A stretch of DNA of 64,000 nt from Mobula hypostoma (taxonomy: Eukaryota): the NCBI RefSeq assembly GCF_963921235.1, contig NC_086108.1:42596001-42660000 (forward strand), read 5' to 3'. The notes below the pieces were generated by a model. It ran no database searches, was not told the origin of the DNA, and saw nothing but the letters and a program-made list of their open reading frames with translations. Of the stretch, positions 1 to 62,199 are shown piece after piece; the stretch's first letter is position 1, and the number at the start of each line of letters is the position of its first letter. A program made the translations under genes and the position numbers.

Positions 1-313
1 AGTACTCTTCTGTGAAGTACTTGTTGTGTTATCCTGCCTTGCCCTTTTCAGTATCCTTCAGATGATTGACAATGTCATCCTTTCTGACTATGTAAAGTAC
101 CTCAGTTATGCATTACAGTCCAGCTCCATTACATTACCCTCAACTTTACTCCTTATTTTATCTCTGCCAACAACGGTCTCTTAACATGTGGTTACCTTAA
201 GAATGCACTCAAGTTGTCATTGAGATTTTCCTTATTTACATCATCACTGCCTCTGACTCTACTTACCTGTGGGTGCCAGAACATCACTGCCTTAGATAAT
301 GTTTAATATATTT

Positions 314-2495: not shown

Positions 2496-2774
2496 CCTTA
2501 TTTAAAATAATAAATAGCTATAGGAACCCTCTTTGGAATTACCACCAAGTTCAAGAGACCTATGTTCAGTTCTGACCTACAGAAAGTTTGCACTTTCTCC
2601 CTGTGGGGTGGTTGTCCTCTGGGTGTTCCAGTTTCCTCCCACATCCCAAAGACTTGTGGGTTAGTAGGTTCATTGGCCACTTTAAATTGCCTTCAGTGTA
2701 TACATGAGTGATAGAATATGGAGAGAAATAAGATGGGATTAATGTAGGATTGGTGTAACTAGGTATTGATGGTT

Positions 2775-2810
2775 AGTCCTGACGAAGGGTCTCGGCCTGA
2801 AACGTCGACT
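2775..2810 (+). ncRNA. Minimal type I hammerhead ribozyme motif
   Basis: AGTC-CTGACGA-A-GGG tctcgg CCT-GAA-ACGT-C-GACT: conserved core boxes, stem I AGTC/GACT, stem II, palindromic ACGT in place of stem III. Confidence 0.8.
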
Positions 2811-2872
2811 GCGCCTCTTCCTATAGATGCTGCTTGGCCTGCTGCGTTCACCAGCAACTTTGATGTATGTTG
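2775..2872 (+). mobile_element. 98-bp PLE terminal-repeat insert containing a hammerhead motif
   Basis: 10-bp TSD attgatggtt (2765-2774 and 2873-2882); empty site at ~6494-6503. Confidence 0.9.
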
Positions 2873-3094
2873 ATTGATGGTTGGTGTAGTCTTCATTAGC
2901 TGAAGGGCCTGCTTCCACTCTGCATGATTCCTTTTGATTCTAAGCTGCAATAAATGAACTAAATTTTATACGAAAACTAAAATAATAAAAGAACATTTTT
3001 ATAATCTCTGTGAAAAAATGTGTATTGAAAATAAATCTTAAAGGTGTTCTGTGGTGAAGAAATCTATGGAAGACTGCGTGGTTGACGATTACCT

Positions 3095-3590: not shown

Positions 3591-4255
3591 TTAGATTAGA
3601 TTATGAGGACATGCAGTCCTCTTTTATTGTCATTTAGTAATGCATGCATTAAGAAATGATACAATGTTCCTCCAATATGATATCACAGAAACACAAGACA
3701 AATCCAGACTGAAAAACTGACAAAAACACATAATTATAACATATAGTTACAACAGTGCAAAGCAATAATGTAATTTGGTAAAGAGCAGATCATGGGCACA
3801 GTAAAAAAAAAGTCTCAAAGTCTCTCGAAGGTCCCATCATCTCAAGCAGATGGTAGAAGGGAGAAACTCTCCCTGCCATGAAGCTCCAGTGCCGCAAACT
3901 TGCCGATGCAGCACCCTGGAAGCACCCGACCACAGCCGACTCTTGAGTCCGTCCGAAAACTTCGAGCCTCCAACCAGCCCTCCGACACTGAGCACCATCT
4001 CTGCCAAGTGCTTTGACCCCAGCACCGGCAACAGGCAATAGGCAAAGCTGAGGATTTGGAGCCTTCCCCTCCAGAGATTCTGGATCGCACCCTAGCAGCA
4101 GCAGTGAAGCGAGCATTTCAGAAGTTTCTCCAGATGTTCCTCTATGCTTCTCACGTCTGTCTCCATCAAATCAGGATTGTGCACAGTATCTACTTACCAA
4201 TACCGATATCATTTCGGAGCGGCCGCGGGCGCTGCATTGCGCCACCATCTTCTCC
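3591..4255 (-). mobile_element. Non-autonomous retroposon, diverged subfamily of 5577-6222
   Basis: Same head and (TAATC)n tail, homologous body, no coding capacity. Confidence 0.7.
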
Positions 4256-4458
4256 CCTCCCCTTTAATGTTAATATATTAATAGCTGGTTTGTTCTATAG
4301 ATTTGTCTTTGTAGATTTAAGACTCATTTGGAATAAACAATATTGGTAAGGTTATTATTAGTATCTAGATTAATTTTTGTGTCATAAATTACACCAGGTC
4401 AATCTTGATTTGAGAGGCTTTATATGCAAAAGTTACCTGCCTAGTCAAGTTATATAAT

Positions 4459-4676: not shown

Positions 4677-5264
4677 AATGGAGGATTCAGCATGAAGGAT
4701 TGGAATATCCTGTTAGAGAACCTGAGGAACATGCTTCCCTCTAAGTTACTTCCACATGACTTAAAGATGAAAGGTGAGAGGTTTAGGAGGAACATGAAGA
4801 GAAACTTCTTCACTCAGAGGGTCATGAGAGTGTAGAGCGAGTTGCCAGCACAAATGATCCATGCAAGCTTGACTTGAATGTTTAAGAAAAGTTTGGATAG
4901 ATACATGGATAGTAGGGATATTGTGGGCTATGGTCCAGGTGCAAGTCATTGGGAGTAGGCAGTTTAAATGGTTAGGACCAACCTGACATAGCTTTGGACA
5001 AAACTGTCAAAAAATGATTATTAGCCATCATTGCCAATAATGAGGAAGTCAATCTAAATGTGACTGTGCAAGTTAGTACTATTAACCATTCTTAATAAGG
5101 GAAAGCTCACGTTTGGCCTCCATGGCACAATGAAAGTATTTTTCTATCAAAAGTCATGTTATATGTGATTAACACAGCTCAATTCCCACCTTTCTCATCA
5201 TTTCTGTTCAAATCCCTTTAATTGGATTTCTGCCCTCTCCTTTGCACAAAGGATGCCCAGTTCA

Positions 5265-6590
5265 GCACTCTTCTGTGAAGTACTTGTTGTGTTATCCTGC
5301 CTTGCCCTTTTCAGTATCCTTCAGATGATTGACAATGTCATCCTTTCTGACTATGTAAATTATCTCAATTATGCATTACAGTCCAGCTCCATTACATTAC
5401 CCTCAACTTTACTCCTTATTTTATCTCTGCCAACAACGGTCTCTTAACATGTGGTTACCTTAAGAATGCACTCAAGTTGTCATTGAGATTTTCCTTATTT
5501 ACATCATCACTGCCTCTGACTCTACTTACCTGTGGGTGCCAGAACATCACTGCCTTAGATAATGTTTAATATATTTTTAGATTATGAGAACACTCAGTCC
5601 TTGTTTATTGTCATTTAGAAATGCATGCATTAAGAAATGATACAATGTTCCTCCAGAGTAATATCACAGAAAAACAGCACAAACCAAAGACTAAAACTGA
5701 CAGAACCACATAATTGTAACATATAGTTACAGCAGTGCAAAGCAATACCATAATTTGATAAAGAACAGACCATGGGCACGGTAAAAAAAAGTCTCAAAGT
5801 CCTCAGTCGATTGACTCCTGAGTCCCTGATAGCAGGTGGCAAAGGGAGAAACTCCCTGCCATAAACCTCCACGCACCGACAACTGCCAATGTATTGGAAG
5901 CACCCGACCACAGTCCGTCCGAAAACTTCGAGCCTCTGACCAGCCCCTCCGATACAGCCTCCCGAGCATCTTCGACCTTGCCCGGCTGTCGAAACAAGCA
6001 AAGCTGAGGATTCGGGGTCTTCTTGTCCGGAGATTCCGGACCACACAGTAACAGCAGCAGTGAAGCGGGCATTTCAGAAGTTTCTCCAGATGTTCCTCCA
6101 TACTCTCACATCTGTCTCCATCAAATCAGAATTATGCACGGTCCCCGACTTGACAAATAACAGACATCACCACCGAAGTGGCCGTGCGCGCTGCGTCGCG
6201 CCGCCATCTTCTCCTCCTCCTGCTCCTTATTTAAAATAGTAAATAGCTATAGGAACCCTCTTTGGAATTACCACCAAGTTCAAGAGACCTATGTTCAGTT
6301 CTGACCTACAGAAAGTTTGCACTTTCTCCCTGTGGGGTGGTTGTCCTCTGGGTGTTCCAGTTTCCTCCCACATCCCAAAGACTTGTGGGTTAGTAGGTTC
6401 ATTGGCCACTTTAAATTGCCTTCAGTGTATACATGAGTGATAGAATATGGAGAGAAATAAAATGGGGTTAATGTAGGATTGGCGTAACTAGGTATTGATG
6501 GTTGGTGTAGTCTTTATTAACTGAAGGGCCTGCTTCCGCTCTGCATGATTCCTTTTGATTCTAAGCTGCAATAAATGAACTAAATTTTAT
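5265..6590 (+). repeat. Segmental duplication copy B (empty-site copy)
   Basis: agcactcttctgtgaag...taaattttat matches 1-2969. Confidence 0.95.
5577..6222 (-). mobile_element. Non-autonomous retroposon, uninterrupted copy
   Basis: As above; lies within duplication copy B. Confidence 0.7.
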
Positions 6591-7424
6591 GCGGTGTCTT
6601 AACTATACAAGTACTCAACACGAAATTCCAAAGATTATCCACATTTCTATGTTTAGAAATATCTTCAAATCACCTTCCTGAATGGTTACCCCTTTATTTT
6701 GAAAATAAACACCATAGTCAAGACACATAGCAAACTTGCATTGCCCTTTCAAGCCCAAAACAATCGTATACAATTAAAAGAGATCACCTTTCATTCTTCT
6801 AAATTCAATCTGCTTGATTTCTCCTTGTAGGACAACTCGTAACTATTGCAGGAAATGTTTGGTGCATGCTATAATTTATATCGTTTCTTATTCTGGGAGA
6901 CGGAACTGCACAATCTATTACAGATGCAATCTCACCAGGGATTTATACAGCGTCTTCTATTCAAATCTTCTTGTAATATAGGCCAGTATACTATTTCCCT
7001 TCATAATTGTTTCTCATGCATGCTTATTAACTTTAAGTGATCCCTTTACAAGAAAACTTGGGGCCCTCTGAAACAAATACCTTTCAATCTCTCATTTTTC
7101 AAAAATATACATACATCACCTTCCTATGTTTTTCTACAAAAGTAGATGACCTTGCATCTTTTCATATTATATTTCATTTACTGTGTGCTTGGTCATTCAT
7201 TCATTTCTCCATAAAACTACCTAACTTTAATCCTCTCATCTAAATCAGTGATATAAATTGTAACTGGTTAGGTCACTGCACTGGTCCTGACAGCACCCTA
7301 CTAATTCAGCCTCCCAACTCAAAAAATTTAGTCCTATTCTTTCTTTTCTACCCATCTGTGAACAGTGAAGAAGGTAACTCTAAATCTAACCATACAAATT
7401 AGCATTATCAGCTTCTTTAGTAAC

Positions 7425-42000: not shown

Positions 42001-45000
42001 GAACCATGAGGGAGGTGATAGGCAGCTAGGGGAGGGGGCAGAGTGACATAGGGATAGGGGAAGGGAGAGGGAGGGAATTACCAGAAGTTGGAGAATTCTA
42101 TGTTCATACCAAGGAGCTGGAGACTACCTAGACGGTATATGAGGTGTTGATCCTCCAACCTGAGTTTAGCCCTCATCATGGCAGTAGAGGAGGCCATGTA
42201 TGGACATATCTGAATGGGAGTGGGAAGCAGAGTTGAAGTGGGTGGCTACTGGGAGATCCTGTCTGTTTTGGCGGATGGAGCGGAAATGCTCGACGAAGCG
42301 GTCCCCCAATCTGCGTCAGGTTTCACCAACGTAGAGGAGGCCGCACCAGGAGCACCGGATGCAATAGATGACCCCAACAGACTCTCAAGTGAAGTGTTGC
42401 CTCACTTGGAAGGACTGTTTGGGGCCCTGAATGGTGGCAAGAGAGGAGGTGTAGGGACAGGCGTAGCACTGGAAAATGTTAATTGGAACAAAATGACAAT
42501 GAGAAAGCATACAGGAGTGTGATAGGTTGCCTGGTTGAGTGGTGTCACAACAAACAACCTTACATTCAACATCAACAAGACCAAGGAATTGACTGTGACT
42601 TCAAGGTGGTGAAGGCCTTAGAACATGCACCAGTTCTCACTGAGGGATCAGCAGTGGAAAAGGTGATCAAGTTTAAGTCCAAGAGGCAGTGCCTCAAGAA
42701 GGCAGCATCCATCATTAAGGACCCTCACCAAAGGGGATATGCTCTCTCCTTGTTACTACTGCCAGGGGAAGGATTCTGAAGACCCACACTCAATGATTCA
42801 GGAGCAGTTCTTTCCCCTCTCCATGAACACCCGCTCACCGTTAATTCTTTACCTATTATTAATTCTGTAATTTTATGTCTTTGCACTGTAATGCTGCTGC
42901 AAAAGTACAAGTTTCACATCATATACGACAGTGATAATAAACCTGATTCTGAAAATCAAGTTTTTTAAAACTGTACTTGGATTCTGATTATGTCCCAGAC
43001 ACAATAAATAAATTACTCATACATATTAACAGTTTTAAGTCAGTTCAAGTCCCAGCTAAACTCTTAAATCTCCATTATTCAAAAGAAAATGCATTGGACT
43101 GAATAGTTCAGTCATCAATATTTCCTTCTCAAACAAAATAAATGCCCAAAGTATAATAATTCAGAATCCATAGCATTCTAGTTCCATCAGTTTAGCAATT
43201 ACCACCTGAACCAAACAAATTGATTTAAAATTTTAACATCACTATAACTGGAATTTACAAGCTCTATCTCTCACTCCAACATTGCTTACAAATTTACTTT
43301 AAAATATGATACAGGTTCCCATTGCATTTTGTTCAGATATCACTGGGCCTGAACTTGCATAAAAGTTCAACCCATAAGCTTCTGCTATTAAAGACCATAA
43401 GACATAGGAGCAGAATTAAACCATTTGGCCCATTGAGTCTGCTCTGCCATTTGATCCTAGCTGATCCATTTCCCTCTCATCCCCATTCTCCTGCCTTCTC
43501 CTCATAACTTTTCATGCCCTGACTTATGAGGATTTTTTAAATAATACCTCAGAAATCTCTGCACTAATTTTAATGTGAGAAAGTCAAGTCACAGTTTTTC
43601 TCAGATGGGTCATGTAGCTTTAGCGCTCAGTGACATTTCATTTAGAGAAATTTATATTATTCATACATCTGAAAGGCAGGACAGCACATTATATCTACAA
43701 AACACAATTGCTTGCTCCTCAGTATCAACAAAGCAGGAAACATTGGATTAAAGGGAAAGAAGTCCAATTCGGGACCTTAAGTAAAGACAAGTTTAAATCT
43801 ATGTCTACATAGTAGACATTAGCAAAATGCCAAATACTAATTTGGGTTTTATCCACCAATGAAACAGTAACAAAAACAACACCCATTAGTAAGCCTTAAC
43901 CAATGCATCAATACTGACTAGCTCAAGCCAACGCACATAAAATGCTGGAGGAACTCAGCAGGCCAAGCAGCATCTATGGAAAAAAGTACAGCCAACGTTT
44001 TGGGCCAGAACCCTTCGTCAAGACTAGAGGAAAAAAGCTGAGGAGTAGATTTAAAAGGTGGGGGCGGGGAGGGGAGAGAGAAACAGCAGGCGATAGGTGA
44101 AACCTGGAGGGGGAGGGATGAATTAAAGAGCTGGGAAGTTGATCGGTGAAAGAGACAGAAGGCTATGGAAGAAAAAATAAGGGGAGAGGAGCACCAGAGG
44201 GAGGGAAGGGGTTAGCAAAGAGGTAAAATGAAGTAGGGAAAAGGAGATGGGAAATCGTGAAGGGGGTGGAGGGTGGGGCATTACCTGAAGTTTGAGAAAT
44301 CGATGTTCATGCCATCAGGTTGGAGGCAACCCAAACGGAATACAAGGTGCTGTTCCTCCAACCTAAGTGTGCCCTCATCATGACAGTGGAGGAGGCCATG
44401 GAAGGACATATTGGAATGGGAACAGGAAGTGGAATTAAAATGGATGGTCACTGGGAGATCCTGCTTGTTCTGGTGGACGGAGCAAAGATGCTCAGCGAAG
44501 CGGTCTCCCAGTCTATGTCAGGTCTCACTGATATACAGGAGGCCATACTGGAAGCACTGAGCACAGTAAACGACCCCAACAGATTCACAGGTGAAATGTT
44601 GCCTATTGCCTCTCTCTGTTGCTCCTCCCTCTTTTTTTTTCTTCCATGGCTTTCTGTCTCTTTCACCAATCAACTTCCCAGCTCTTTACTTCATCCCTCC
44701 CCCTTCAGGTTTCACCTGTCATCTGGAGTTTCTCTCTCCCTTCCTACCACCTTTTAAATCTACTCCTCAGCTTTTTTTCTCCAGTCCTGCCGAAGGGTTT
44801 CGGCCTGAAACGTCAACTGTACTTTTTTTTCCATGGATGCTGCCTGGACTGCAGAGTCCCTTCAGCATTTTGTGTGTGTTGTTCAGATTTCCAGCATCTG
44901 CAGATTTTCTCTTGCTTGTGATTTGATTACCAGTTCCGGCCATGTAAGTCTCAAAATGACAGTCCAGTTATGTTTAGGCTAAAACATATCCGATATAGCA

Positions 45001-48000: not shown

Positions 48001-51000
48001 ATCCAAAATTGGATTTGAAAAATCTGATGGTGAATTCTAATCATTTTGTGTGTCATCTGACATCATGTTTTTCTCTAGTTAATTAAACTTAAACCATTAA
48101 CATTGAATGTTCAACACAGAATTCAACAGATTTTCATCTCTCAATGTACATGATGACAAAACATTGCTAAACTAAGAATGCAAGTAGACATATCAGATTT
48201 ATCATTTCTATTGTTTCTACAGAATATTTTAAATGAACGGAGAACTTGTAAAGCTGAGGGAACAGTCAATTATAAAAAGGAAATTCATCTAATAATGTAC
48301 TTTTATTTCCTTTGTAACATGATTGAATTATTGAAAAGACTGGGTTTAGAAATTGAGAAAACAGAGATAGGCAGAAAGGAGAACTCAAATCACAAAACTA
48401 TGATATTTCTTTACTTTATAAGTCATGGCACAGTTGAGTTTACAAATAAACTGGTAATTGAAATTAAAAAATGGAAGGTTATCCAGCATCAGTCATAGTA
48501 CTCTTAAGTACATACCGCTGATCTTTTCAGCCATAAGTGTGGATATTTTGCAGCAAGACGAAAGAAGCCTTGTGGTGTAATGGTCCAAAATAAGTATCTG
48601 TAAGTAAAAAATGACAGCTTGAGATTCTTCCCAAACAAGAGAAATCTGCAGATGCTGGAGATCCAAGCAACACACACAAAATGCTTGAGGAACTCAGCAG
48701 GCCAGGGAGCATCTATGAAAAAGAGTATAGTCCACGTTTCGGCCCAAAGTGTCAACTATACTCTTTTCCATAGATGCTTCCAGGCCTGCTGAGTTCCTCC
48801 AGTATTTTGTGTGTGTAGCTTGACATCCTTGCAGTGGTATAGTTAATTTCATCTGGTTTATACCATAGTTGCAATAGAAAAACAAGCTAAATATTTTCTG
48901 AAACATTCTGCTTATTGACTACAATAGTATTTTTATGCCACTTACTCTTCTATTCTTCTTCATAAGGAACTAACTCTACTCTGGATGTGGTTCAACACCA
49001 CTTAGGGATGGCCATTTCTAATATGTATATATCAACAAGGACGCAAATTGTTGACTATAGAGCACGGGGGAATCATAGTACAACTACATTTTATCCCAGT
49101 AAACATTTTTGGAAAGCAATCAAGGGTGGAAGGGTGGAACCTCTCCCACTCCCCCCTACCCCCACAACACAGCACATTTGGTTACCATGATGTTTTATGA
49201 TTAACTTAGGGTCAAAAAACTGAAATACCCCAGAAGGCAAATTTGATGTATTGCTACTGACGTGTTGGGTTGAAATATGGAGAGAAGAGGGATGAAAAAA
49301 GAAGGCAAATTAAGTAAACATTTAAGGTTCTGTTGTGATCATCTTCATAACCCTCAACATACATACAAGGAAAATACTGTAATAGTTGGAAGATAAATTT
49401 GTTGGTTTTGATCTGAGATCACTTAAAATTTAAATGTATACATAAACTACAATCCTAGCATTCCCAATAAAAATGTGCAAAATATAAAAAATTAACATAT
49501 AAATTGTGCAAAGGAATTGATACATTTGCAAAAGACCGCTCCCACTTATATTGGAAACTTCCTACAAAAAGTACTTTTAGCATTTCCTCCTTAGGAGGTC
49601 AGAGATCCTGGGGACAAATTGAGACAGAAAAATGTCAGTAACCTAAAATGTTAAAGATAGTATGGAAACACTTTAAGATTATCAGTACTATACCATTCAA
49701 GAATATTGTATGATGGGAGTTATTTTTTTCCATCTGTGATCCATTAAAACAATCTAAGTTATTCATTTACCTCTGTTTCCACAATGTAGCCATTACAGGC
49801 TAGGCATTTATTGCTCAGTGCTAATTGTCTTTGAGAAGGTGCTGATAAGCCACATTCTGCAATCTTTCTGGTGAAGCCACTCATATAATGATGTTGGGAC
49901 CATGACTGAGACCAGCAATTTATTTCCCAGGTCAGGACGGTACATGCCATGGAGAGGAATATCCTTTTTTTAAATTTTTTTTTTAATTTTATTTTTATTT
50001 GGATAAGGAGTTCACAATTATCATGTACTTTTTTCACACATATAACCTTTTCCATTTTTTTATATGTATAAAACTACAATTATTTATACATTCTTAAGAA
50101 CACATTGAGATGATATAAAAGCAAAATAAACATTTAAATAGATAATTATGTACTGTGGAAAATCTAACCTATTAGGCTAAGTAATGAAATTAGTTGTTAA
50201 AAAAAATGGTAATAATAGTTTCCATACAACCCTTCTGGACCATTTCCACTGGTCCAAAATGTTGCATACAAGCCTATATACCAACCATTGTAGGTGTTTA
50301 TATCCCAATTTGTTCGTGCTTGTTCCTGCCCGCAGACATAATTATCCAATCCCTATGTACTTATTTACTTAATTTCCCAAATCCTTTCCCAAATCTTTCC
50401 CATTACTTGTGTTAATTCTCTATTTTCCAAAAAAAAACAACAAACATTTAGACTAGGGGTGCTTACGTTAGCAATATTACTGTGTTGATGAGAAGAGCAA
50501 TATAAATCATTAGGAGAGTCATCTAAAGTCTGCTCGCATTGGAGTTATATATTCAATCCATTTATTCCAGATTTGATAAAATGTTTCTTTTTGAGTTCTC
50601 AGGGAGTAAGTCAACTTTTCCATTTTAAGTATTTCCAAGATAATTTCGTACCAATCTTCTAATGTAGGTGGTATTGGATTTAGCCATTTTCTAGTGATTG
50701 ATTTCTTACTTGCCGCTAAGAGGGCCTGCAGCAACTTTATATCTTCCTTCTGTTCAAGGAACAATACATGCCCCAAATAGAGCGTCTCAAAGTTCAGAGG
50801 TATCTGGGACCTAAGTACCTTAACTAATGTTCTATGAATACCTTCCCAAAATAGACTTAATTTAGGGCAATCCCAGAAAATATGAAAATGATTTGCCTCC
50901 TTGGAGCCGCACCTTCTCCAACACATCACATTTGTATCTTTATATTTTTCCTGATATGGGGTCTTGAAGTATCTTATAATGTTTTTCCAACAATGTTCTC

Positions 51001-57000: not shown

Positions 57001-59035
57001 ATTACTGACGGCAGCCTAACTGGGCCACAATTCAGTTTTCTCACTCGGTTTAAATAATGGCGACATATTGGCAACCCTCCAGTTACAGAGGATGTTCTAG
57101 AATCTATGATATTCCAGAAGATGACAAATGTGGTTTTCTTTCGCTTCTTCTATGAAGACAGGCAGAAAATATTTAATTGCTCTGCTATTTCTTTATGTCC
57201 TACATAATTTCTCCTGTATCATCGTATAAAGGATCTACATTAACTTTTGTTAATCTTTTCCTTCTTACATACCAATCAAAGGTCAAAGGTTTTAAATGTT
57301 TCTCTACTCCTGTGTACTATTTTTATTTTCTTTATCAATACCTTAGTTTTCCTCTGCAAAATTGTGAAATACAGGTTTCCCCCGCCATCCGAAGGTAGGG
57401 CGTTCCTATGAGACGGTTCGTAATCCGAAATGTCGTAAAGCGAAGAAGCAATTACCATTTATTTATATGGGAAAATTTTGTGAGCGTTCGCAGACCCAAA
57501 AATAACCTACCAAATCATGCCAAATAACACATAAAACCTAAAATAACAGTAACATAAAGTAAAAGCAGGAATGATATGATAAGTACACAGCCTATATAAA
57601 GTAGAAATACTTCTCTACTACGACTGCCTACACAGATCTCCGTAGCGAAAATCTCACGCAAGCGCTCTCGGCAGAAAATCTCACGCAAGCACTCTCGACA
57701 GAAACATACTCTCCAATAACCTTTTGAACTATGAAGCTGCCAAATCTACCAAATAACACGTAAAAATACACAGCCAATACAAAGTAGAAATAATGTATGT
57801 ACAGTGTAGTATCATTTACCAGAATCGGGAAAACAGCTTGCCCAGCACACTGATGGTGTGTTAGACTGAGTCGTCGCAGATTGGGGTGGTGCAGTGGCCC
57901 CCACCCTCCAGGCCGCCGACTGATACATTGCCACAAAGAACGCAGCGGTAGGCGGGAGGCACACAGCACATCTTTAAGAAAAAAGCCGAAATAAGCATTC
58001 TAATTAATTAGGTGCTGCCCGGCACGTAAATGTTGGTGCAGATCAGTGCCGATTGCGTCGTCTCTGATCTGGGCCGACAATTACATGTCGGCGGCACCTA
58101 ATTAATTAGAATGTTTATTTCGGCTTTTTTCTTAAAGATGTGCTGTGTGCCTCCCGGCTACCGCTGCATTCTCCGCGAATCGGTACAGTATCTGTCCGGG
58201 GCCCGGGGTTGGGGTGGTGGGACACGGGGGTGTCATCTCATCCATTGCTTCACTTTCGCTACTGCATTCCGTTTCAATTGTTACCCTTTCCTCTTCCAAT
58301 TGCATCAGCTCTTCATCTATCAGTTCTTGGTCATGAGATGCCAAAACCTCTTCAACATCAACTTCATCAGCTTCCACAAGCCAAACTCACTTTGTCCTTG
58401 CTTCATTCACCACGATCGAAATGCTTAATTATGTCTAGTTTTACGCTAAGTGTAACACCCTTACGAGCTCTTTCAGGCTTTTCCGACACCTTAGAGCTCA
58501 TCTTGCTAACGGCTGCTCAAAGCAACGTGTTTAAGCAATGCCGTTCCGAATCCGGGGAAGAGCGGTTGCTCTTTTATCGGGCGCTGATTTTTTATCGTGC
58601 GCTGCCTTTCTTTGTAACAGTGAAAACACCTTCTGAAAGCGAAAACAGGGTACTAATGAAGGTGTTTCGTAACAGTGAGGTTTCGTAAAGCGAATGTTCG
58701 AAAAGCGGGGGACACCTGTATTCACAATCCTCACATTTGCTGTCTTCTTTGGCAATGTCATCAACTTTTAATTTTGATCTAGTAATATCATTATCTTTTT
58801 ACCTCATCATTCAACTTAGTATCTATTCAGGAGGTAACTTTAAATTCTTCCAGTCTATGTTTCACTCTTTTAGTCGCAGTCAGAAAAAAATTACATATTA
58901 AAAAAGATGATTAAAAATTGAAATGATTGTGCTCAAACATGACATCAGTTAACAATGACGTGCTGCATTCAAGCATTTGACTTACCTTCCATTCTCCTGC
59001 TTCCAAGCAGTCATCCAGTATGAGTTTCTTGATCT
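14191..59035 (-). CDS. STXBP3: Syntaxin-binding protein 3 (Munc18c, Sec1/Munc18 family); 18 coding exons in window, first coding exon outside
   Basis: Spliced translation matches Munc18c motifs: [111 protein letters not shown]. Exons sum to 1712 nt in a continuous frame with GT-AG introns. Confidence 0.95.
14476..14624 (-). CDS. STXBP3: STXBP3 exon 18 (149 nt): [50 protein letters not shown]
   Basis: gtttag|TGCT...ATTG|gtaagt. Confidence 0.94.
15471..15556 (-). CDS. STXBP3: STXBP3 exon 17 (86 nt): [28 protein letters not shown]
   Basis: gtacag|GAT...GTAAG|gtacac. Confidence 0.92.
15647..15820 (+). mobile_element. tRNA-derived SINE
   Basis: A box TGGTGTAGTGG, B box GGTTCAAATCC, then body shared with 11630-11770. 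Confidence 0.75.
16289..16625 (-). mobile_element. Solo LTR (337 bp)
   Basis: TG...CA ends with imperfect inverted termini; 4-bp TSD ttac (16285-16288 and 16626-16629); minus-strand TATAAA (16441-16436) then AATAAA (16353-16348). Confidence 0.75.
18007..18042. repeat. (TA)n(TG)n microsatellite
   Basis: Direct observation. Confidence 0.95.
18786..20460 (-). mobile_element. CR1 LINE, 5'-truncated, interrupted by a Rex1 insert
   Basis: RT ORFs 19561-20418 and 18874-19179 are nearly identical to the 386-1915 copy. Confidence 0.96.
19212..19641 (+). mobile_element. Rex1/Babar LINE 3' end nested in CR1
   Basis: Encodes ...[45 protein letters not shown]; (ATT)n tail; TSD tagtc at 19207-19211 and 19642-19646. 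Confidence 0.85.
20778..20876 (-). CDS. STXBP3: STXBP3 exon 16 (99 nt): [33 protein letters not shown]
   Basis: ttttag|TCT...GAG|gtatgt. Confidence 0.93.
20945..25925 (-). mobile_element. PLE with inverted terminal repeats, split by a CR1 insertion
   Basis: Terminal repeat at 20950-21090; body to ~21618 resuming at ~25633 with RT remnant [19 protein letters not shown]; opposite-strand terminal repeat at ~25838-25920. Confidence 0.7.
21620..25600 (-). mobile_element. Near full-length CR1 LINE (ORF1 zinc finger/coiled coil/SGNH esterase; disrupted ORF2 APE-RT)
   Basis: ORF1 24399-25385 with CxxC, GDS, GTND, DGLHLN; ORF2 starts [14 protein letters not shown], then [25 protein letters not shown]; many frameshifts; 3' tail at 21620. 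Confidence 0.93.
26151..26254 (-). CDS. STXBP3: STXBP3 exon 15 (104 nt): [35 protein letters not shown]
   Basis: ttatag|GAACG...TCT|gtaagt. Confidence 0.92.
27455..27912 (-). mobile_element. Degraded CR1 3' end
   Basis: acaggcccttcagc tail and accactctctgtgtaaagaa (FFTQRVV) segment. Confidence 0.65.
28132..28270 (-). CDS. STXBP3: STXBP3 exon 14 (139 nt): [46 protein letters not shown]
   Basis: cttaag|GAC...AATG|gtacag. Confidence 0.93.
28437..28517 (-). CDS. STXBP3: STXBP3 exon 13 (81 nt): [27 protein letters not shown]
   Basis: ctgtag|CAA...CAG|gtatac. Confidence 0.93.
29478..29543 (-). CDS. STXBP3: STXBP3 exon 12 (66 nt): [22 protein letters not shown]
   Basis: ttacag|GCC...AAG|gtataa. 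Confidence 0.92.
30669..30726 (-). CDS. STXBP3: STXBP3 exon 11 (58 nt): [20 protein letters not shown]
   Basis: gtacag|GAAA...AAA|gtaagt. Confidence 0.92.
31225..32620 (-). mobile_element. Cluster of nested Rex1/Babar LINE fragments
   Basis: [18 protein letters not shown] and [21 protein letters not shown] motifs; younger copy at ~31653-32030 inside an older one. Confidence 0.75.
33830..33931 (-). CDS. STXBP3: STXBP3 exon 10 (102 nt): [34 protein letters not shown]
   Basis: taatag|ATAT...GCGA|gtatgt. Confidence 0.93.
34460..34755. mobile_element. PLE terminal-repeat-only insert with three hammerhead motifs (one -, two +)
   Basis: 14-bp TSD taacttgaacaaaa (34446-34459 and 34756-34769); motifs at 34557-34593(-), 34598-34634(+), 34660-34697(+). 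Confidence 0.88.
34812..35562 (-). mobile_element. PLE 3' part (GIY-YIG endonuclease remnant + terminal repeat)
   Basis: YIG..., [26 protein letters not shown]. Confidence 0.8.
35950..36074 (-). CDS. STXBP3: STXBP3 exon 9 (125 nt): [41 protein letters not shown]
   Basis: tttcag|GGT...TATAG|gtaagc; most conserved SM-protein block. Confidence 0.96.
36628..36718 (-). CDS. STXBP3: STXBP3 exon 8 (91 nt): [31 protein letters not shown]
   Basis: ttccag|TGAA...AAG|gtatgg. Confidence 0.9.
37494..38095 (-). mobile_element. CR1 3' fragment
   Basis: Same 3' UTR as the 21620 copy (aagaccatacgacgtaggagcagaattagg). Confidence 0.85.
38647..38813 (-). CDS. STXBP3: STXBP3 exon 7 (167 nt): [55 protein letters not shown]
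   Basis: Acceptor atctag|GTA is clear. Donor AG|gtccat is the nearest GT in the phase (2) required by exon 8, but it is weak, so the 3' boundary is less certain. Confidence 0.8.
40070..40170 (-). CDS. STXBP3: STXBP3 exon 6 (101 nt): [34 protein letters not shown]
   Basis: ttgtag|ATTGT...CAG|gtaaat. Confidence 0.93.
40870..41560 (-). mobile_element. Rex1/Babar-type LINE internal fragment (endonuclease/tether)
   Basis: Decayed coding pattern similar to Rex1 ORF; family assignment is tentative. Confidence 0.5.
41685..42467 (-). mobile_element. PLE, 5'-truncated: GIY-YIG domain + terminal repeat with intact hammerhead core (41776-41813)
   Basis: [43 protein letters not shown]; 15-bp TSD actggaaaatgttaa (41670-41684 and 42468-42482). 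Confidence 0.9.
42490..42952 (+). mobile_element. Rex1/Babar fragment
   Basis: [23 protein letters not shown]; tail gataataaacctgattctga. Confidence 0.65.
43922..44925. mobile_element. PLE with ~280-bp inverted terminal repeats around a GIY-YIG remnant
   Basis: 43925-44200 is the reverse complement of ~44605-44885; hammerhead motifs at ~43988-44025(-) and 44782-44819(+), both with substitutions. Confidence 0.85.
45034..45106 (-). CDS. STXBP3: STXBP3 exon 5 (73 nt): [24 protein letters not shown]
   Basis: tttcag|TCT...GACT|gtaagt. Confidence 0.93.
45592..45668 (-). CDS. STXBP3: STXBP3 exon 4 (77 nt): [26 protein letters not shown]
   Basis: ttctag|TTGTT...AAG|gtattt. Confidence 0.93.
45935..46302 (+). 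mobile_element. Rex1/Babar 3' fragment
   Basis: gaaagcagcatct..catcaagga...ctcttctcactgctgccgtcaggaag; homologous to 31225-31650. Confidence 0.65.
48516..48597 (-). CDS. STXBP3: STXBP3 exon 3 (82 nt): [27 protein letters not shown]
   Basis: ttacag|ATA...AGCG|gtatgt. Confidence 0.93.
48637..48828. mobile_element. Fold-back PLE terminal-repeat pair
   Basis: ~70-bp inverted arms, 48664-48734 and 48751-48822. Confidence 0.8.
49965..51788 (-). mobile_element. L1/Tx1-clade LINE, 5'-truncated, young
   Basis: Open ORF2 C-terminus (~420 codons; FIWQG..PRI, GGMVLP, CWRRC...HIFWDC zinc knuckle); A-rich tail; TSD tggag(a/g)ggaatatcc at 49950-49964 and 51789-51803. Confidence 0.92.
52747..54802 (+). 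mobile_element. DNA transposon, CMC/Chapaev3-like, with transposase pseudogene (53122-54577)
   Basis: Termini tta|CACTGGACAACA ... TGCTGTCCAGT; motifs [53 protein letters not shown]; frameshifts. Confidence 0.72.
55855..56688 (-). mobile_element. CR1 3' fragment
   Basis: [28 protein letters not shown]1 3' UTR tail. Confidence 0.88.
57372..58718 (-). mobile_element. Tigger/pogo-like (Tc1/mariner) non-autonomous DNA transposon
   Basis: TA|CAGGT(T/G)TCCCCCGC inverted termini with TA TSD; minus-strand [26 protein letters not shown] (CENP-B-type HTH start) joined to acidic C-terminal [17 protein letters not shown]; catalytic region deleted. Confidence 0.88.
58986..59035 (-). CDS. STXBP3: STXBP3 exon 2 (50 nt): [17 protein letters not shown]
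   Basis: tgcag|AGATC...GGAAG|gtaag. Confidence 0.9.
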
Positions 59036-61137: not shown

Positions 61138-61572
61138 GACGGTATGAACATCGACTTCTCTAACTTCCGCTAATGCCCCACCTCCCCCTCGTACCCCATC
61201 TGTTATTTATTTATATACACACATTCTTTCTCTCTCTCTCTCTCCTTTTTCTCCCTCTGTCCCTCTGACTATACCCCTTGCCCATCCTCTGGGTTTTTCC
61301 CCCCCTCCCCCTTTTCCTTCTCCCTGGGCCTCCTGTCCATGATCCTCTCATATCCCCTTTTGCCAATCACCTGTCCAGCTGTTGGCTCCATCCCTCCCCC
61401 TCCTGTCTTCTCCTATCATTTTGGATCTCTCCCTCCCCCTCCCACTTTCAAATCTCTAACTCTTCCTTCAGTTAGTCCTGACGAAGGGTCTCGGCCTGAA
61501 ACGTCGACTGTACCTCTTCCTAGAGATGCTGCCTGGCCTGCTGCGTTCACCAGCAACTTTGATGTGTGTTGC
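61138..61572 (+). mobile_element. Young PLE 3' end with intact hammerhead motif (61474-61509)
   Basis: Ends [14 protein letters not shown]; pyrimidine-rich UTR; terminal segment almost identical to 2775-2872. Confidence 0.88.
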
Positions 61573-62199
61573 TTAAGCATCACCACTGCCAAGTCCCCTA
61601 GAATCAACATCATGGAAGTCATCATAGAGCAGTAATTAAATGAAACCAAAGTCTCTCTGTCTCTGACTTTATGACAGCAGAGTACACAGCAGCAAATTAC
61701 TCACAATTCCTCTCCAACATCAAGGTTTAATTCAAATATATAACGGAATATTGAACTTTTGCTTGCAGGAACATAGCAAACAGAACAATCAAGAAGCTAC
61801 ATACATGTGCATGACTGGATGCAATATGCAAATACATTGGCTGGGTTATCGCGAGGTGTACAGGGGTGACACAGATCAGCTGGTTGAATGGTGCTGCTCT
61901 GTGTGAAGTGAAGTGGAAATTTGTGATCACTTCAGTGGTTTGGAACTATTTTTTCAACTTTGTCAACCCTGCCATATTTTCATTGCCATACTGAAAAATG
62001 TTTAAATTGGGATCACAATATAGTAATGTGGGGACAATAATATAAAGCTATCTAAAACAATCACATAAATTGCATGTGGAGTCAGGGAGCTTTATGGCAC
62101 AGAAACAGGCCCTTCAACCCAGCTTGTCTGTCCTGACCAAGTTGCCTTGTTGGGCTAGTCCCATTCATTTATCTGTATTTAGCCCACATCCTGCTAAAC

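Follow-up and report, generated by a model that had tools for sequence, protein, structure and literature searches.

The 98-bp insert at 2775–2872 of the window (the whole 64,000-nt stretch of Mobula hypostoma DNA that was analysed) is a short copy of the 3′ end of a terminal repeat, which belongs to a young and highly abundant Penelope-like element (PLE). We consider it probable (roughly 60%) that the insert was made by target-primed reverse transcription from the nearer of two internal start sites, with the reverse transcriptase (RT) running off an uncleaved RNA whose 5′ end lay at the base of helix I of a hammerhead motif. As a single insertion it is unremarkable within a known class, likely a dead short PLE copy and one of thousands. 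It also belongs to a non-random end class, which holds testable information on the PLE mechanism, and both the integration mode of PLEs and the role of their hammerheads are stated to be unresolved (PMC8557442, PMC11167929). Three testable constraints are offered: the templates are uncleaved, the two arms of an insertion come from a common source, each from its own start site, and half of all arms end in a zone at helix I that is fixed in position.

Element positions are numbered with +1 at window position 2775. The features referred to are:

2765..2774, no strand: left target site duplication (TSD), whose final 3 bases are shared with the element's sequence just before +1 (microhomology)
2775..2872, plus strand: the 98-bp insert, equal to +1..+98 of the PLE terminal repeat and ending in the "short" class of 3′ ends
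2775..2810, plus strand: minimal type I hammerhead motif, assigned from sequence, with the architecture given in PMC4209133
2873..2882, no strand: right TSD, the flanking repeat
6494..6503, no strand: empty site in the duplicated locus 5637–6593, which is 2.9% diverged
34446..34769, no strand: two-armed insertion of the insert's family with a 14-bp TSD
61144..61574, plus strand: longer arm of the insert's family, spanning about −323..+101 and carrying the element's natural sequence ahead of the hammerhead

The insert is bounded by exact 10-bp repeats, and the paralogous locus carries the same 10-mer singly and without an insert. Outside the insert the two loci align without gaps and show 28 differences in 957 bases. 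The insertion is thus real, and the empty site proves it as the original prediction had argued. The further claim that the empty site fixes both ends has to be relaxed for the 5′ side: the GTT that closes the left repeat is also how the element's natural upstream sequence ends, so the insert may begin anywhere between −2 and +1 with a TSD of 7–10 bp, and a 7-bp TSD with 101 bp fits as well as 10 bp with 98. At the other side, the 3′ end (+98) nearly coincides with those at 34756 (+96) and 61574 (+101), as had been noted. Since the insert does not differ from the youngest copies of its family, it was likely inserted after the duplication. The duplication that supplies the empty site is a local segmental one, 97–99% identical, pairing 1–385 with 5264–5648 and 1908–2972 with 5637–6593; a weaker third copy lies at 3596–4260.

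Directly upstream of the repeat the parent element carries an ORF with matches to RVT_1 (E 2.5e-5) and GIY-YIG (E 6e-4), both below the Pfam gathering cut-offs. In the copy L076 this ORF ends 296 nt upstream of +1, and DKG and YIDD motifs are visible. The linker between the RT and endonuclease (EN) domains reads CKRNKCYTC (CX4CX2C) in P0001 and has the form CX2-5CxxC that is described as a Neptune feature; Nematis also has a linker motif (PMC8557442). The parent is probably an endonuclease-bearing, Neptune-type PLE, with the clade read from the linker motif. Its full unit is 3,515 bp, with an ATG at +171. The insert is a fragment of this EN+ PLE, the contiguous RT and GIY-YIG ORF, two classes of 3′ ends, an inverted partner and TSDs all being present, and the proposed PLE origin, mobilisation by the PLE enzyme and shared 3′ end are borne out. 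Over 97 nt it matches 11 other arms among the 401 collected without a difference, and 9 of these 11 extend beyond −400. Pattern searches of the 3.48-Gb genome gave 32,520 exact matches to the first 37 nt of the insert (0 for the reversed control) and 102,896 to a 21-nt motif at the 3′ end. Solo pLTRs and 5′-truncated insertions of Neptune-type EN+ PLEs show the same RT and C-terminal GIY-YIG ORF, CX4CX2C linker, terminal-repeat hammerhead, inverted 5′-truncated partner, one-sided tail of 30–40 bp and TSD of ∼9–16 bp (PMC8557442, PMC3846280). High 5′ truncation is described for them, but the accessible parts of these papers contain neither a focused peak at helix I nor counts of arm pairing.

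In the hammerhead motif, AGTC (2775–2778) and GACT (2807–2810) would form helix I around the core CTGACGA (2779–2785), which is followed by one extra A, helix II (2787–2798), GAAA (2799–2802) and the palindrome ACGT (2802–2805). C2806 corresponds to position 17 of the hammerhead, and cleavage is predicted after it. The CUGANGA/GAAA/UH core with helices I and II and a palindromic stub of helix III thus appears to be present, in agreement with the elements and the C2806 site originally predicted. At +24, T or C is found in 359 of 361 aligned arms, which preserves the pair with G13. The motif was identified by sequence pattern alone, and an Rfam scan gave no hammerhead match at E≤1 and two weak, unrelated hairpin matches. 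The minimal type I hammerheads of metazoan PLEs (PMC4209133) resemble it in the core, in the extra base between positions 9 and 10.1 and in the G10.1 pair, and likewise have a short helix I, a palindrome replacing helix III and mostly single, dispersed motifs.

Folding of the 98-mer was no better than that of its shuffles (z +1.10), and in the minimum-energy monomer the catalytic core was paired with ACGUC rather than free. The predicted probability of helix I depended on where the RNA starts: it was 0.95 for starts at −3 or +1, 0.11 at −8, 0.00 at −19 and −39, and 0.01 at +3. In longer RNAs helix I is predicted to be lost because a pyrimidine tract just before it (L008; 61455–61490 in the window) pairs with GAAGGG (+10..+15), which would sequester the core in read-through RNA. 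Such a predicted block of helix I by an upstream tract, relieved when the RNA starts at −3..+1, distinguishes this motif from the hammerheads described in the accessible part of PMC4209133. No helix of at least 5 bp of the loop II/downstream pairing type was seen in the insert. Several copies of older families (e.g., L150, L335, L351 and L354) may form a 6-bp pairing between CTCAGC in loop II and a downstream GCTGAG; judged by eye, the young family has one mismatch in it.

To describe where copies end, we gathered arms, mostly from contig C1, by their 3′ motif alone. Of 401 arms, 4 came solely from stretches that had been selected through the hammerhead pattern and were removed, leaving 397 that are unselected for 5′ length above ∼25 nt. 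Their 3′ ends fall into two classes, +95..111 and +124..139, with none between; such tails have been equated with two internal RT start sites (PMC11167929). The 5′ ends were taken as maximal extensions and are thus shifted 5′ by a few bases through microhomology. Within −30..+25 of helix I lie 187 of the 397, with the mode at +1/+2. The rate of 5′ ends was 3.39% per nt at −4..+3, ∼1% per nt on both shoulders and 0.21% per nt at +26..+75; from −61 to −2610 a background of 0.09–0.18% per nt was found, and 12 arms stayed censored. No second peak was seen in these 2.6 kb, including near the donor-like sites at −622/−601. Single-armed copies peak at the same place (54 of 99 in the zone and 23 of 99 at −4..+3). 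Arms of the short and long 3′ classes have zone medians of 0 to +2 and −3 to +2.5, respectively, though their starts are 37 nt apart. The peak is thus set by position and not by length, and we rejected length-dependent fall-off.

The original prediction had posed a choice between an extreme 5′ truncation and a discrete RNA, to be decided by plotting the ends. The plot fits neither half of it: nearly half of the ends cluster, which speaks against smooth truncation, and the cluster is ∼55 nt broad, which speaks against a sharp, discrete end. What is observed instead is a broad, strong hot zone centred on the base of helix I. We found no description of this peak in the open-access literature searched, though supplementary figures may show it.

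Genome-wide, patterns for junctions matched 580 times at −3, 9,361 times at +1, 320 times at +33 and 272 times at the +37 control, with filters that differ between patterns and make the ratios approximate. The counts at +33 and +37 give no genomic sign of self-cleavage. Among the +1 matches listed, 29 of 100 were young-family junctions when counted by eye, or an estimated ∼2,700 in all, and much of the remainder belongs to older families with a different natural upstream sequence. In a crude check of 101 older-family matches, which include false positives and decayed copies, the upstream tract is retained in 31, the core is present but the tract absent in 24, and no core can be recognised in 46. 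Among the +1 junctions listed, several have ACGA in front of them, which repeats +8..+11 in a short second copy, as though the RT had realigned at the end of its template.

An inverted neighbour was found for 197 arms, which make up 125 insertions: 107 combine a short with a long 3′ end, 1 has two short ends and 17 are unresolved. The two arms carried identical haplotypes in 47 of 65 scorable pairs, against a mean of 6.7 (maximum 16) in 2,000 shuffles. They also agreed in 5′ length, since among 124 pairs both arms were short in 90, both long in 27 and mixed in only 7 (p 8e-20; the classification covers pairs in which at least one arm ends short of about −620). In long pairs the two arms both extend past the zone but frequently end hundreds of bases apart, and so they do not move in lockstep. 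We infer that a single RNA, or a single source locus, served both starts and supplied the copy for each of the two nicked strands, and that it is the template molecule which determines whether copying stops in the zone. Among 78 short pairs, the short-3′ arm extends further in the 5′ direction in 48 pairs and the long-3′ arm does so in 24. One arm is therefore usually not a copy of the other, and simple fold-back was rejected as the main source of inverted pairs. TSD-like repeats of 13–15 bp flank 72 of 113 two-armed insertions, and a TSD of at least 9 bp accompanies 59 of the 99 single arms. One-sided tails and inverted partners have been known qualitatively (PMC3846280, PMC8557442).

The insertion at 34446–34769 illustrates this arrangement. 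It consists of a long arm of −5..+138 on the minus strand (34459–34598) and, on the plus strand, of about +2..+62 (34599–34659) and +1..+96 (34661–34756), so that two 5′ stops at +1/+2 occur in one event. The three hammerhead copies include two in tandem, 63 bp apart, which is a natural dimer arrangement. Further palindromic insertions at 48664–48822 and 43929–44881 match the ends of older PLEs, and one at 57937–58172 has no match elsewhere in the window.

The mechanism we favour for the insert would run as follows. The endonuclease would nick both strands ∼10–15 bp apart, and each nick would prime cDNA synthesis at one of the two starts (+95..109 or +124..139) on one RNA. Templates would come in two classes, short ones starting near +1 and long ones, and at the insert locus only one arm would have been kept, joined through the 3-nt microhomology. 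Such a copy, carrying neither the second start nor the 5′ body nor the ORF, was likely dead on arrival. The short templates may owe their 5′ end to a transcription start or to trimming. A start of the RNA near helix I is suggested by the sequence: TTAGTC at +1 fits an initiator consensus, and an AT-rich stretch lies near −30. Against such a start stand the breadth of the hot zone (∼55 nt) and the bases at +1, which read equally well as a 3′ splice site with a branch-like motif, a pyrimidine tract and YAG. Only one full-length copy in the sample, L314, clearly got as far as the zone, and it continued through to −648; most jumps into the 5′ body depart from −60..−140 rather than from the zone. 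An excess of a cap-derived G was not evident before +1, where 29 young-family junctions among the matches listed had A in 16, G in 7 and C in 6 by eye count, nor was one evident by eye at −3. In D. virilis transcription has been mapped to a start well upstream, 46 nt ahead of a 75-nt intron (PMC2377424), and the intron ends at helix I (PMC4209133).

The closest experimental parallel is the Poseidon element PAc of the green anole, whose protein uses two internal starts in vitro, extends both strands, accepts uncleaved RNA and yields products that become shorter when the template is shortened at its 5′ end (PMC11167929). An RNA 5′ end is the simplest cause of the peak because the peak is the only one in 2.6 kb, is fixed in position and matches a protein that copies to the 5′ end of its template. 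As in our copies, two internal RT starts define the tail of PAc, both strands are cleaved and extended, and no RNA-seq ends fall at its cleavage site; junctions show no excess there in the present genome either. The target of the insert begins with ATT, the motif preferred by PAc. The two systems belong to different clades and differ in layout: the PAc ORF begins inside the hammerhead and contains the starts, whereas here the ATG at +171 lies downstream of both (PMC11167929).

A wider account can be put forward tentatively, at somewhat less than even odds. The thousands of genomic junctions would record an RNA 5′ end at the base of helix I; the ribozyme would be switched on by the RNA start (or by splicing), one RNA would be copied twice by a protein dimer, and it would rarely be cut before reverse transcription. 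In the folding model −3..+1 is the narrow window in which helix I is predicted to form, and longer transcripts would lock the core in a hairpin with the pyrimidine tract.

A run-off is not the only way to obtain such a peak. Splicing factors bound just before helix I, at the branch point, pyrimidine tract and AG, or the hairpin predicted to span −9..+15, might halt the RT on some templates of a long RNA. A conserved sequence resembling a 3′ splice site does abut helix I in young and older families, the D. virilis intron ends at the corresponding point (PMC4209133), and a block acting per molecule would also yield concordant arms. We nevertheless regard this as unlikely: an RT moving 3′ to 5′ would meet the hairpin at +15 but the mode is at +1/+2, purified anole PLE copies through its own hammerhead region in vitro (PMC11167929), and among the 322 arms with a classifiable 5′ flank no junction joins the zone to an upstream splice donor. 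A spliced template with a shared first exon was not seen either. In older PLE families (41812, 44026 and 44783 in the window; L024, L204, L249 and L297) a branch-point-like CTGAC or CTAAC, a pyrimidine tract and YAG directly precede helix I.

The peak could also arise at the DNA level, whatever length had been copied, if two same-sense cDNAs annealed through the imperfect palindrome at about +4 or if a cDNA hairpin were opened or trimmed. Such events would account for the concordance of the two arms, and inverted junctions do recur in palindromic registers, e.g., +2/+10 and −8/+15. These registers make up only a minority of junctions, however; single-armed copies peak at the same place, and the further 5′ reach of the short-3′ arm in most short pairs is usually not that of a fold-back of the long arm. 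We consider this origin improbable.

That the start at helix I is a coincidence of ordinary random 5′ truncation is very improbable: the rate is flat upstream of −60, so that any single copy could be background, but at −4..+3 it is 20–35 times that background and a copy ending there is almost surely in the peak class. For the family as a whole the distribution of ends refutes this reading.

Equally slight is the chance that the 98-bp unit represents a discrete RNA family of its own, non-autonomous, retrozyme-like and mobilised in trans, as the original prediction had offered in its second branch. In its favour, 15 of the 397 arms, the insert included, are TSD-flanked single copies with a 5′ end at −3..+3 and a 3′ end up to +103, corresponding to a few thousand when scaled to the genome, and the junctions estimated at +1 are similarly many. 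A separate family finds no support in the haplotypes, though, as all 8 common ones hold short copies and the ratio of short to long copies is similar across them (chi-square 6.8, df 7, p 0.45). With no private haplotype and an insert identical to long copies over 97 nt, an independent short lineage was rejected. Both ends of the unit vary, and the second arm of short two-armed insertions reaches +133..138, so that these need a template to at least +135 and hence beyond a 98-nt RNA. At the predicted cleavage site (+32..34) only 2 of 397 arms have their 5′ end, which is no enrichment, and with no excess of ends at C2806 an origin from cleavage products was rejected.

Animal non-LTR retrozymes resemble the insert in being non-coding, in bearing a hammerhead and in deriving from PLE terminal repeats, but they are described as tandem, with RNAs of ∼170–400 nt bounded by cleavage (PMC7229834; bioRxiv 10.64898/2026.07.22.740005). 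The 98-bp copy, by contrast, is single, has its start 32 nt before the cleavage site and does not form a lineage. Two of the defining retrozyme features are thus absent, since short copies neither begin at the cleavage site nor stand in tandem.

A different kind of unit was seen at most of 30 other loci (L301–L330, e.g., L301/L302, L315/L316, L317/L318, L306, L309–L311 and L322), where the terminal repeat is joined to the 5′ body with the ORF deleted. The junctions lead mostly from −60..−140 of the repeat to +284..+332 of the 5′ body, and their motif was counted 333 times genome-wide. Each junction is largely specific to its locus, yet occurs there 2–3 times or in both arms. The resulting hammerhead-bearing units of 340–460 bp suggest circular or repeatedly jumped templates, and these rarer, repeated units are better retrozyme candidates than the 98-bp copy.
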